UHGV virus genome: UHGV-0126007 | Direction: 5' to 3' (one strand) | Length of the DNA: 21,383 nt | DNA from: a virus | In this document: piece after piece, positions 7,614 through 19,112 of the stretch | Numbering within the stretch: position 1 is the first letter of the stretch | Layout of the letters: the number at the start of each line of letters is the position of its first letter | Position numbers and translations under genes: made by a program | Notes under the pieces: generated by a model | Seen by the model: the letters and a program-made list of their open reading frames with translations, nothing else | Databases searched by the model: none | Told to the model about the DNA's origin: nothing

Positions 7614-8057
7614 TTAAGCACTAAAGAAAAAGTACATTGATAGCTTATAAAGTCCTGTTCCTGCAGCGATGATTGCTGGAACACCAAGCAATACCGCAAG
7701 CTTTGCGTCTGAAATCTTTCTATCGACAGCATCACTTGATGGCTTGTTTGTTAAGGATTCTTTTATAGAGTCCAGACGTGCAAGAATAGTTATCATATTT
7801 TTGTCGATAGCTTTAACGTCTGTTTTAAGTTCATCAACGTCTCGTTTGATATGAGCAACATCGGACTCCAGTTTTGCAACTTTTTCAGGCATGTTATCAC
7901 TCCCAGACCCACTGCTACCACTTGATTGTAGCATGTCCCATCTTTTTCCAGATATACCTGCTAGCTGGGAAGACGCACTGGAGTGCAAACAAAATGATTT
8001 TGCCGCCTTTGCAATTTTATCATTTAGGTTTGGAGCTTCGTAATAATCGTGTTTCAT
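7614..8057 (-). CDS. Tail-anchored coiled-coil membrane protein, 147 aa (rex-position cargo gene B)
   Basis: Gly/Ser-rich linker (SSGSSGSGSDN), heptad-like coiled coil (KVAKLESDVAHIKRDVDELKTDVKAIDKNMITILARLDSIKESL), C-terminal hydrophobic helix (LAVLLGVPAIIAAGTGLY). Architecture resembles XhlA-type phage membrane proteins (analogy only). AT-rich by eye. Confidence 0.5.
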   Translation of the reverse strand: MKHDYYEAPNLNDKIAKAAKSFCLHSSASSQLAGISGKRWDMLQSSGSSGSGSDNMPEKVAKLESDVAHIKRDVDELKTDVKAIDKNMITILARLDSIKESLTNKPSSDAVDRKISDAKLAVLLGVPAIIAAGTGLYKLSMYFFFSA

Positions 8058-15950: not shown

Positions 15951-16087
15951 TGTTTGAGTTTTATATGGCAGAACTTCTTCGCCACCGCTGGATGCGCCTG
16001 CGCTTATATCGTTTCCCCGGTTCTGTTTTGACCGATTACCGAATACTGAAGAATTACGCCAAAACACTGACAGGAGCAGGAGTATGA
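15947..16087 (+). CDS. ylcG: YlcG-like small protein, 46 aa (below the ORF-track cutoff)
   Basis: Hand translation [46 protein letters not shown]; start overlaps the rusA stop, as for ylcG between rusA and quuD in DLP12. Confidence 0.55.
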
Positions 16088-16172
16088 AGTCAGAGATAAC
16101 AATCAACTAATACTGTTTTGTTGATTTTTGCTTGTAATTGGCGTTCTGGTCTGAGTTTTGTGGAGTAAGTTG

Positions 16173-16556
16173 ATGCGTGATATTCAGATGGTTCTTGAGC
16201 GTTGGGGAGCGTGGGCGGCTAATAATCATGAAGATGTGACCTGGTCGTCCATTGCCGCCGGTTTTAAGGGATTAATTCCTTCAAAAGTAAAATCTCGCCC
16301 ACAATGTTGTGACGATGACGCGATGATCATTTGCGGGTGCATGGCCCGTCTGAAAAAGAACAACAGCGATTTGCACGATTTATTAGTAGATTATTATGTA
16401 GTCGGTATGACATTCATGTCACTGGCAGGTAAGCATTGCTGCTCTGATGGTTATATCGGGAAAAGGTTACAAAAGGCTGAGGGCATAATTGAAGGGATGT
16501 TAATGGCATTAGATATCCGGTTAGAGATGGATATCGTTGTTAATAACTCTAATTAA
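16173..16556 (+). CDS. quuD: Late-gene antiterminator Q (phage 82 / DLP12 QuuD type), 127 aa
   Basis: [90 protein letters not shown]... matches QuuD from recall; the ORF-track TTG at 16158 is probably not the real start. Confidence 0.88.
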
Positions 16557-16589
16557 TACGCCAATTATTTACTAAAAGTTATTAAAAAT

Positions 16590-16730
16590 GGGGCGTTGAA
16601 ACGCCCCCAAAAATAAAGGGTAATATATAACAGAAGGTTTGTATAGTTAGAAGCAAGGTTGTGCTTCTAAAGGAAGTGGCTTGAGGGAGCCACTTATATG
16701 TTGGGGAGGCAAAGCCTCCCACAACATATC
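16590..16730. promoter_or_regulatory. Cluster of four GC-rich hairpins between convergent Q and porin genes; candidate late promoter PR'/qut and terminators
   Basis: Hairpins at 16590-16607 (GGGGCG/CGCCCC), 16649-16668 (AGAAGCA/TGCTTCT), 16676-16693 (GTGGCT/AGCCAC), 16700-16725 (GGGAGGC/GCCTCCC). Possible -35 TTGAAA (16596-16601) and -10 TAATAT (16621-16626), with a -10-like TATAGT in the initial transcribed region. Confidence 0.4.
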
Positions 16731-16744
16731 TTTTAGTAATCAAA

Positions 16745-17827
16745 TTAGAACTGGTAAACCATACCTACAGCAACGATATCATCGGTAGCAACGCCAGATG
16801 CTTTCGTGAAATCGCTCTTATCAATCAGGTTGATTTTGTAGTCAACAAAAGTGGACATATTTTTGTTGAAGTAATAGGTTGCACCTACATCAACATATTC
16901 AACCAGGTCCTGATCACCCCAAACACCCAAGTCTTTTCCTTTAGAATGCAGGTAAGCAACGGATGGACGCAGGCCGAAGTCGAACTGATATTGTGCAACA
17001 GCTTCGAAGTTTTGTGCTTTGTTGGCAATATGGTTATTACCAAAAACAGTCATGTTCTGGGTTTCAGAATAGGTGGTGGCCAGATAGATGTTGTTCGCAT
17101 CATATTTCAGACCAGCTGCCCATACTTCAGCATTTTGACCAGAAGCATTCAGACCGTTGTTACCGTAGATAACCTGATTATTAGTGCGATCAGATTTAGC
17201 ATAGGTTGCACCCACGCCGAATCCTTCATACTCATAAGTAGTTGAGAAACCGAAACCATCGCCATTAGCTTCAGTTACTTCATTTCGGTCATTTTTGCCC
17301 TGATACTGAGCTGCAAAGTTCAGGCCATCAACCAGACCAAAGAAGTCGTTGTTACGATAAGTTGCAACACCTGTGGTGCGACCAGTCATGAATACATCTG
17401 TTTGGGTCCAGGTATCGCCACCGAATTCTGGCAGAACGTCAGTCCACGCACCGATGTCGTATGCTACACCGTAGTTACGGCCGTAATCGATTGAGCCGTA
17501 GTCACCGAATTTCAGGCCTGCAAATGCAAGACGGGTTTTGTCTTTGGAGGAACCTTGAGATTCAGCGCGGTTGCCTTTGAATTCATATTCCCACTGACCG
17601 AAACCAGTCAGTTGATCGTTGATTTGGGTTTCACCTTTGAAGCCAAGACGGGCATAAGTAGTATCACCATCATCTGCATCATTAGAGGAGAAGTAGTGCT
17701 TAGCATTAACTTTCCCGTACAGATCCAGCTTGTTACTGTCTTTATTATAAATTTCAGCTGCCTGAGCAGACATCGCCATCAGTACTGATGCAGCTACAGC
17801 AGAAATTGCCACTGTTAATTTTTTCAT
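16745..17827 (-). CDS. nmpC: Phage-borne general porin of the OmpC/OmpF family (NmpC / Lc type), 360 aa, apparently intact
   Basis: Signal peptide [23 protein letters not shown] then [17 protein letters not shown]...; typical porin beta-strand repeats; C-terminal aromatic (F); same position and orientation as nmpC between quuD and essD in DLP12. Confidence 0.85.
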
Positions 17828-18254
17828 CGTGAGCCCTTTTTTTTGAACTATTATTAAAAAATGATGTCACTGCGCGATAAATATTCATCTAATCAATATG
17901 ATTATTTCAAGATGTAAGTTTTGGTTTCTCGTTTGATTTGTGAAGTAGATCTCTATTTTTATCTGAACTTTTTCTATCGAATCCTATTCATGGCTCTTGG
18001 CTGAATAAAAATAAATCTATTAGCCAATTTATATTAACGGTTGTTATTTATAAGTGCTCTATGATTTGAAGGTTCAATTTAAATCGGCTAAAAATAACAC
18101 TGGGAATTATTTGTTGGTTATTTGTTGAGATTTGCTTATGTATTTGTGGTGGTGTTTTCAATACTCGGTAGCATTCTCGCAAATATCATTTAGTGGTTTA
18201 CGTACGTAAAAAATTGGTTATGCTGTTAAGAGTGGTTACTTCGTCACACAGCTT

Positions 18255-18287
18255 AAACCCGCCGTCGAGTGGGTTTTTCCATTTTTT
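18255..18287 (+). terminator. Terminator-like hairpin with T-run about 110 bp upstream of the holin gene
   Basis: Stem AAACCC / GGGTTT (18255-18276) with 10-nt loop, followed by TTCCATTTTTT. Confidence 0.4.
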
Positions 18288-18399
18288 GAGTCTCGATATT
18301 AGCTGATAACCCAATACCTGAGTTATTCACTGACTCCGAGTCTGTTACGTTTCGTAGTATTCCCTCAATTTACACCCGCTTTGTCTGCGAGGTGGGGTT

Positions 18400-18615
18400 A
18401 TGAAATCCATGGATAAGTTAACAACGGGTGTCGCCTATGGCACCTCAGCAGGTAGTGCCGGTTACTGGTTTTTACAGCTGCTCGATAAAGTCACGCCCTC
18501 ACAGTGGGCAGCAATAGGTGTGCTGGGTAGCCTGGTATTTGGCCTGCTGACGTACCTGACAAACCTTTATTTCAAGATTAAAGAAGATAAGCGCAAGGCT
18601 GCGAGAGGTGAATAA
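18400..18615 (+). CDS. essD: S21-type pinholin with dual-start motif (antiholin from Met1, holin from Met4), 71 aa
   Basis: [71 protein letters not shown] matches S21/EssD from recall; two TM segments; SD GAGGTGG. Confidence 0.9.
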
Positions 18616-19112
18616 TGCCTCCATCATTACGAAAAGCCGTTGCTGCTGCTATTGGTGGCGGAGCAATTGCTATAGCATCAGTGTTAATCACTGGCCCAAG
18701 TGGTAACGATGGTCTGGAAGGTGTCAGCTACATACCATACAAAGATATTGTTGGTGTATGGACTGTATGTCACGGGCATACAGGAAAAGACATCATGCTC
18801 GGTAAAACGTATACCAAAGCAGAATGCAAAGCCCTCCTGAATAAAGACCTTGCCACGGTCGCCAGACAAATTAACCCGTACATAAAAGTTGATATACCGG
18901 AAACAACGCGCGGCGCTCTTTACTTGTTCGTTTACAACGTGGGCGCTGGCAATTTCAGAACATCGACGCTTCTTCGCAAAATAAACCAGGGCGATATCAA
19001 AGGCGCATGTGATCAGCTACGTCGCTGGACATATGCTGGCGGTAAGCAATGGAAAGGTCTCATGACTCGTCGTGAGATTGAGCGTGAAATCTGTTTGTGG
19101 GGTCAGCAATGA
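18615..19112 (+). CDS. rrrD: SAR (signal-arrest-release) endolysin, lysozyme family (R21 / RrrD type), 165 aa
   Basis: N-terminal Gly/Ala-rich SAR helix ([18 protein letters not shown]); catalytic triad at E35, D44, T50 ([18 protein letters not shown]), as recalled for R21; start overlaps the holin stop. Confidence 0.9.

Follow-up and report, generated by a model that had tools for sequence, protein, structure and literature searches.

The stretch of DNA analysed here, the window, is the 21,383-nucleotide sequence presented for the virus genome UHGV-0126007, and it is a lambdoid prophage of the DLP12/PA-2 type. Its Q antiterminator gene (16173-16556, + strand) encodes a 127-aa protein of the QuuD type in the Q21/Q933W family, which matches Pfam family PF06530 over its full length (181 bits). 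Against the solved Q21 structures it scores E = 7.6e-8, and it shares 79-82% identity with the Q proteins of Shiga toxin (Stx) phages. Facing it is a porin gene of the nmpC/lc type (16745-17827, - strand; PF00267, 507 bits, full length), so that Q and porin converge on a 188-bp spacer (16557-16744) that contains four hairpins. Farther right lies the holin gene (18400-18615, + strand; PF04971, 121 bits), the first late gene 3' of the promoter PR' at which Q is expected to act. Which gene do the hairpins serve, and where is PR'? The reading that I favour, with a probability of roughly 70%, is that the hairpin cluster is the 3' untranslated region (UTR) and terminator of a porin moron, and that Q's PR' lies beyond the porin, at 18197-18287.

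An earlier note on this DNA described four consecutive hairpins between the convergent Q and porin genes, and both inverted repeats and shuffle-tested folding bear this out. The repeats lie at 16590-16607 (H1), 16647-16670 (H2), 16674-16695 (H3) and 16696-16729 (H4). The + strand of the spacer has a predicted folding energy of -71.6 kcal/mol, where shuffled sequences average -39.7 (z = -9.1); for the - strand the value is -67.5 kcal/mol (z = -8.7), and none of 200 shuffles did as well on either strand. The hairpins had also been called GC-rich, which is true of the H1 stem and the inner stem of H4 but not of H2, H3 or the outer stem of H4, whose composition is mixed.

A stable stem followed by a U-rich tract, the mark of an intrinsic terminator, is found for H1 on the - strand and for H4 on the + strand, and for H2 and H3 on neither of the two strands tested. 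H1, with its GGGGCG/CGCCCC stem (dG -12.5 kcal/mol), was called by the terminator scan on the - strand only and is the predicted intrinsic terminator of the porin transcript; its tail, ATTTTTAATA (16580-16589, - strand), has T at five of eight positions on that strand, as against one of eight on the other. H4 (dG -22 kcal/mol), taken together with its CTTTTAGT tail (16696-16737), probably stops rightward transcription from Q. Here the tail count is 5/8 T on the + strand and 2/8 on the - strand, and in most natural variants the tail is CTTTTTAC. Read on the porin strand, H4 is the first hairpin of the 3' UTR past the stop codon; then come H3, with a conserved loop that reads CCCUCA on this strand, and H2, followed by a conserved and largely unpaired linker (16608-16646) that holds the hexamers TAATAT and TATAGT. 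The whole cluster is closed, in the predicted fold, by an 8-bp long-range inverted repeat formed by ACTAAAAG (16572-16579) and CTTTTAGT (16730-16737). In the common variant both sides of this repeat change together (A5/T5), and it is most simply a by-product of two opposite terminator tails. A 53-aa open reading frame (ORF) on the - strand (16582-16743), listed as 'hypothetical' in some phage records, was rejected because common variants carry 1-nt indels within it.

The decisive evidence on ownership, as far as comparison of sequences can decide it, is the comparison with the P1-like phages P7 and JL22, by which the hairpins belong to the porin. Both phages carry an nmpC homologue (76% identical) that has ssb and not Q as its neighbour, and its 3' flank contains four hairpins in the same order together with the conserved linker (folding z = -5.7 for the P7 flank). 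The P7 and JL22 flanks differ from that of the window by an 18-nt insertion in the linker region and in the sequences of their stems. The H3 loop is nevertheless identical in P7, the linker core is conserved (GGTAATAAATAACATGAAGTT in the window, GGTAATATATAACAGAAGGTT in P7), and the P7 equivalent of H1 is a terminator whose porin-strand tail is T7; on the opposite strand, P7 lacks the T-run after H4. RNAalifold, run on a MAFFT alignment, finds each of the four helices again and counts 8 pairs in which both sides have changed. Counting from the base of each stem gives up to 15 two-sided pair changes between the window and P7 and no one-sided change, the register being uncertain for H2 and for the inner part of H4. 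Stem by stem, the two-sided changes number two in H3 (A-U to G-C and U-A to A-U), three in H1, at least two in outer H4 and up to five in H2, where the P7 stem has a different sequence and retains its pairing. A chromosomal porin offers a useful contrast: the 3' flank of Salmonella ompN has one plain terminator, which sets the four-hairpin tail apart as a property of the phage nmpC/lc cassette and not of porins in general. The porin gene has thus carried a structured 3' tail with it across unrelated types of phage.

Within the lambdoid phages the linkage is complete, spacer and porin co-occurring in exactly the same 36 phage records. A decayed DLP12 remnant in the chromosome of E. coli SCU-123 (L089) has lost the lysis genes and kept the porin and the four-hairpin spacer. 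Of Q it still has just the 3' end (at least the last ~30 nt), and its porin now adjoins the chromosomal genes yedK/yedF, which suggests that the porin cassette has been retained for the benefit of the host.

Natural variation is informative as well. Among 31 variants of the lambdoid spacer, drawn from 85 loci, 14% of paired positions are variable, as are 50% of loop and 24% of linker positions; in the H1–H2 linker the count is 5 of 39. Six one-sided stem changes keep their pairing, as G·U, only in RNA of the porin strand, and three keep it only on the + strand. Among the six is the common 16666 T>C in H2 (27 of the 85 loci), where the pair survives only as G·U in - strand RNA.

The position of this cluster is explained by what lies at the same site in relatives. 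When the window is aligned with Q loci that lack a moron, homology stops at ~16545 and resumes at ~18195/18196, and for this reason the hairpins, the porin and the porin's upstream control region (17828-18195, the right part, itself without homology to the moron-free Q loci) are read here as a single insert of ~1.65 kb between Q and PR'. In moron-free loci of E. coli, Shigella, Trabulsiella and Pantoea, the sequence cassette that resumes at this point (described below) lies 36-59 nt after Q. Lambdoid morons, in the Hendrix/Juhala concept, are promoter–gene–terminator cassettes inserted between phage genes. The porin insert resembles them in that it is absent from close relatives at the same site, consists of an extra gene with its own control region in opposite orientation, and has a factor-independent terminator (H1) at the 3' end of its cargo. 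It is unlike them in the unusually elaborate make-up of that end, with three extra conserved hairpins and a conserved linker, and this same 3' end also accompanies the gene in P1-like phages.

Other phages carry different inserts between Q and the cassette. SfIV and cdtI have reverse-strand genes there, each with a bidirectional terminator directly after Q; a C. braakii locus has a 2.3-kb insert, ev087 has genes for a Blc lipocalin and YbgA, and phiP27 has a GIY-YIG nuclease. The ev087 arrangement has a peculiarity of its own (L004 3379-3510): its Q is followed by a promoter-like TGtTAGAAT and a GCCAGCC…GGCTGG-T8 terminator that resemble the StxS promoter/tR' unit of 933W. The reverse-strand lipocalin gene and YbgA come next, and a PR'-like TTTACAATCGTAAAA appears only 1.9 kb downstream (~5256). 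The sequence 'ATATAACAG' is common to the window's spacer and this ev087 unit, which I judged to be chance since it is only 9 nt long and differently spaced.

I compared 30 Q loci from species-representative genomes together with further phage records. About 25 Q homologues (68-100% identical) carry a cassette of the form CTTTACG(AT/TA)CGTAAAA…TAT..T…TAAGAGTG…hairpin-Tn, whose shared parts are the TTTACG(AT/TA)CGTAAAA palindrome, a -10 element, TAAGAGTGG…, the hairpin and a T-run. The cassette was found in E. coli, Shigella, Citrobacter, Trabulsiella, Pantoea, Xenorhabdus, Providencia and Morganella. In these homologues it lies 4-59 nt past the Q stop codon, or overlaps it, with no ORF between, and the full pattern occurs once per locus of the Q clade, always on the Q strand. 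A profile hidden Markov model (HMM) built from 24 of the clade's cassettes, none of them from a porin-carrying locus, was run with nhmmer against the 21.4-kb window. It gave a single significant match, on the + strand at 18195-18256 (E = 2.1e-16), with the holin about 170 nt farther downstream, and no match in the spacer. Likewise, the exact palindrome occurs once in the window, at 18197, and a search that allowed up to 3 mismatches added only one chance-level site, at 7824, leaving the spacer empty.

This is where the earlier note went astray in its main proposal, which had PR' and qut, the Q utilization site, in the spacer, with Q-modified polymerase reading 1.1 kb of porin antisense before it reached the holin; the clade's cassette is found beyond the porin instead. 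The fallback that the note had offered, a PR' in the AT-rich region upstream of the holin, agrees with the single cassette match there, and the hairpin it had pointed to at 18255-18287 was recovered by the + strand terminator scan (stem 18255-18276, T-rich tail to 18287) as the terminator of the unit.

By homology with the clade cassettes and with pR' of phage 933W, PR' consists of a -35 element TTTACG (18197-18202), a 16-bp spacer and a -10 element TATGCT (18219-18224) on the + strand. The palindrome TTTACGTACGTAAA (18197-18210) encloses the -35 element and is a candidate Q-binding element. A conserved initial transcribed region (TAAGAGTGGTTAC) and the terminator tR' follow (18227-18287 together), supported by the terminator scan and by conservation across Q clades and genera; tR' reads AAACCCGCCGTCGAGTGGGTTT and then TTCCATTTTT on the + strand, and the holin ATG stands 113 nt past it. 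The late transcript would start at ~18230/18231.

Stx phages provide the best-documented version of this unit. Several hundred Stx-phage records have, at the 3' end of Q, a stretch homologous to the segment 18196-18278, and in 933W this stretch is annotated as 'pR' putative late promoter', 'qut' and 'terminator'. Over 18197-18287 the window is 76-77% identical to the pR' region of 933W and Sp5, and the exact cassette pattern is common to both. In the Stx phages of the Sakai strain, differential RNA sequencing (dRNA-seq) and Term-seq place the PR' start and the 3' end of tR' 258 nt apart (PMC7547250; Sy, Lan and Tree). Counted back from the T-run of the second terminator, that start falls 6-7 nt after the TATCAT of the same element. 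The Stx unit, the source of StxS, differs from that of the window in two respects: it overlaps the Q stop codon, while the window's unit lies 1.64 kb from Q, and its mapped transcript continues to a second terminator, while in the window one terminator precedes the holin. In 933W (L006 1260-1284 and 1465-1493) and Sakai (L123), the transcript passes a first, strong-looking hairpin with a T7 tail and ends at the second; only the homologue of the first precedes the window's holin.

What follows the cassette varies: the holin directly in the window, a small ORF and a methyltransferase in L046, L090 and cdtI, and tRNAs and stx in 933W. Because the late modules after it differ, the cassette can be regarded as the head of an exchangeable late region. 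Its upstream part varies in another way. In PhiR5_1, SfIV and cdtI, whose Q proteins form a clade only ~52% identical, the same transcribed part and terminator are preceded by another palindrome, GCGGTCCGCA. The palindrome thus changes from one Q clade to the other and the transcribed part does not, the pattern expected of a Q-specific binding element, and TTTACG(TA/AT)CGTAAA, nearly invariant across eight genera, is a candidate for the Q-binding element (QBE) of the QuuD/Q933 clade. Phage 21, whose Q (structures 6P18 and 6JNX) is of the same family, PF06530, has a similarly compact arrangement of promoter, Q site and terminator ~50 nt downstream; in its record the Q stop codon is followed after 7 nt by the promoter, with the QBE between -35 and -10. 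Proteins of the Q21 family load at a sigma-70-dependent pause beside a specific DNA site (Yin et al.). However, Q21 is only distantly related to the window's Q, and its QBE, placed between -35 and -10, takes the form of a direct repeat (ATTGAGCA/AATGAGCA), whereas the candidate site of the window's clade is a palindrome that overlaps -35, a symmetry unlike that of phage 21.

These observations can be joined into a working model. Leftward porin mRNA would run through H4, H3, H2 and the conserved single-stranded stretch and stop at the U-tract of H1. Rightward transcription from Q would cross the cluster from the other side and find its first U-tract past H4, shortly ahead of the porin stop codon, where termination would be possible. 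Transcripts from the two sides would then overlap by ~140 nt. The cluster may in this way stabilise and terminate the porin message and insulate Q and porin from each other, each coding region being shielded from the opposing polymerase unless that polymerase is antiterminated; early transcription from the PR operon, if antiterminated by N, could enter the porin as antisense. Q would load at the PR' cassette (18197-18224), with DNA binding and a promoter-proximal pause predicted within 18197-18287, and polymerase would read through the 18255-18287 terminator into the holin, endolysin and Rz genes, so that the late transcript would never cross the porin. With PR' beyond the porin, late transcription is not expected to silence the porin by collision. 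The efficiencies of the terminators and the role of H2-H4 at the RNA level can be given only as predictions.

If this is right, the late promoter has been displaced ~1.6 kb from Q by the porin moron inserted between them and does not lie where lambda synteny points. The module, present in nearly half of complete E. coli genomes, invites the lambda-like reading, which the model corrects. The model also supplies a PR' position open to test, distinct from the published RpoE site 'essDp', and, for the QuuD/Q933 clade, a palindrome as candidate for Q binding. Several points weigh against it. The PR' homologue is a weak match to consensus (TTTACG/TATGCT, 8/12), and no sigma-dependent pause element is identifiable in the cassette. 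A sigma-70 promoter scan does not list the homologue; it reports no promoter in the spacer either, and being silent at both sites it does not discriminate between them. The putative Q-binding element is deduced only from co-variation with the Q clades, and every start and stop site placed in this phage is a predicted one. The 6:3 excess of porin-strand-compatible stem changes is not statistically significant by event count, and the model offers no reason why a terminator should need three extra hairpins. Finally, published primer coordinates for DLP12 suggest a third location for a lysis-gene promoter.

That third location is ~17876, where the coordinates in PMC7918800 put the start of the cited RpoE-dependent essDp; the reporter of that study, described as '-121 to +650', has primers that map to ~17755 and ~18524 of the window. 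A sigma-E-like GAACTA-N16-TCACT is indeed present at 17845-17871 on the + strand, back-to-back with the porin start codon and ~355 nt upstream of the PR' homologue. Earlier work on DLP12 by Rueggeberg (2013, 2015) and Toba (2011) is said to have found Q- and RpoE-dependent expression. That Q itself acts at essDp to drive the lysis genes is nonetheless improbable: the site is inside the inserted porin control region and absent from moron-free relatives of Q, the Q21 family loads at a sigma-70-dependent pause beside a specific DNA site, and the cassette conserved throughout the clade is at 18197, not 17876. Moreover, a transcript from 17876 must still pass the 18255-18287 terminator. For basal expression of the lysis genes, essDp is an open rival. 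The spacer promoter of the earlier note is less probable still. It would stand directly 3' of Q, as in lambda, 21 and most relatives, and ev087 has a promoter-plus-terminator unit in just that place. The hexamers are present, TTGAAA at 16596-16601, TAATAT at 16621-16626 and the -10-like TATAGT, taken as a pause element, at 16642-16647; TAATAT and TATAGT are invariant among the natural variants, and the T-run of H4 on the + strand could serve as tR'. As a promoter, however, the pair fails, since 19 bp separate TTGAAA from TAATAT (the scan accepts 16-18 bp) and nothing in the spacer was called. The candidate -35 is buried in the loop and stem of H1 and varies in nature (TTGCAA, TTGAGA and, in L090, TGTCAA). 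In P7 the cluster follows nmpC with no Q nearby, and the candidate -35 and its spacing are lost while the stems are kept. Neither the cassette nor the palindrome of the Q clade is matched in the spacer, a full PR' homologue stands at 18197-18287, and the next gene after the spacer is the reverse-strand porin instead of late genes in the same orientation as Q. It is therefore very doubtful that Q-modified polymerase reads through H2-H4 and silences the porin by antisense transcription on induction. In K-12, a strong terminator replacing part of the spacer had no measurable effect on expression of the downstream IS5 (PMC11677980), which is weak evidence to the same effect.

Two further explanations concern the hairpins themselves. 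Stacked palindromes look like dispersed REP/BIME repeats, and the flanking 8-bp repeat ACTAAAAG/CTTTTAGT might suggest a selfish miniature element that had landed between Q and the porin. But the spacer occurs in 2510 of 5426 complete E. coli genomes with a median of one copy (2502 of the 2510 have a near-full-length copy, at least 80%), it sits in the same module at the ~85 loci that were examined, its linkage to the porin is complete, and opposite terminator tails account for the flanking repeat. A REP-like element was rejected on copy number, and I give the whole idea next to no credence. A regulatory small RNA (sRNA) that travels with the porin, either an Hfq-type RNA derived from the 3' UTR (H2, CCUUCUGUUAUAUAUUACC, H1) or a + strand RNA ending at H4, seems to me unlikely, though it deserves to be kept in view. 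Hairpins, an AU-rich single strand and a U-tailed terminator make up a layout that resembles known 3'UTR sRNAs. The linker is the best-conserved unpaired part of the spacer and is conserved in P7 despite the diverged stems, and RNAs proximal to PR' in related phages do act as sRNAs (StxS, PMC7547250). The resemblance is, however, all there is to the sRNA likeness, and terminator and stability functions suffice for the data. A scan of 16000-18700 against Rfam 15 at permissive thresholds returned no relevant family, its sole match being a chance-level snoRNA inside the porin ORF (E = 3.1). There is no entry for quuD, nmpC or essD in the searchable supplements of the E. coli Term-seq (PMC7815308) and RIL-seq (PMC5145812, PMC8550237) studies, and PMC5811629 and PMC13502914 hold nothing on the Q–porin locus. 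Equally unlikely, in my estimate, is a wider form of this idea, in which the cluster would be a portable RNA module of phage porins, lambda-like and P1-like, working either as a 3'UTR-derived regulatory RNA with CCUUCUGUUAUAUAUUACC as its seed or through a ~140-nt duplex with the convergent Q transcript; were it true, the duplex would couple porin expression to the lytic switch.

Returning to the favoured reading, in which the hairpins are the tail of a porin moron, the cluster is an ordinary, if unannotated, part of a well-known prophage module. The quuD–nmpC–essD region of DLP12 (qsr') and the lc region of phage PA-2 are the same module at 93-95% identity, with the shared order Q, 188-bp spacer, reverse porin, ~570-bp region, holin, endolysin and Rz. 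The porin is intact in the window, whereas the nmpC of K-12 is interrupted by IS5, and neither the spacer hairpins nor the PR' cassette is annotated in the DLP12 and PA-2 module records examined. The Q–porin–holin segment, also contained in K-12 DLP12, is 92-99% identical in many functional lambdoid phages, among them PhiR70_1, ev243, mEp332 and 434B, the last a viable phage that picked up the module from DLP12. Furthermore, all 80 IMG/VR loci with a 99-100% identical Q share the layout of the window, and in these the PR' segment is 97-99% identical and the rest of the porin–holin region often 90%.

As for the control region of the porin, nmpC promoter activity has been studied in K-12 (PMC11677980) and CRP sites are annotated in the PA-2 lc record. 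One CRP site of 1986 in PA-2 lc (L124 1067-1087; ~18230-18250 in the window) overlaps the initial transcribed region of PR' (GTGGTTACTTCGTCACA), a stretch that is also a small inverted repeat and that co-varies in Xenorhabdus (GTGA…TCAC). A tandem 11-bp direct repeat (TTATTTGTTGG/TTATTTGTTGA) at 18107-18128 on the + strand, in the region upstream of the porin and ~70 nt short of the PR' palindrome, may serve the porin promoter as a regulator site.

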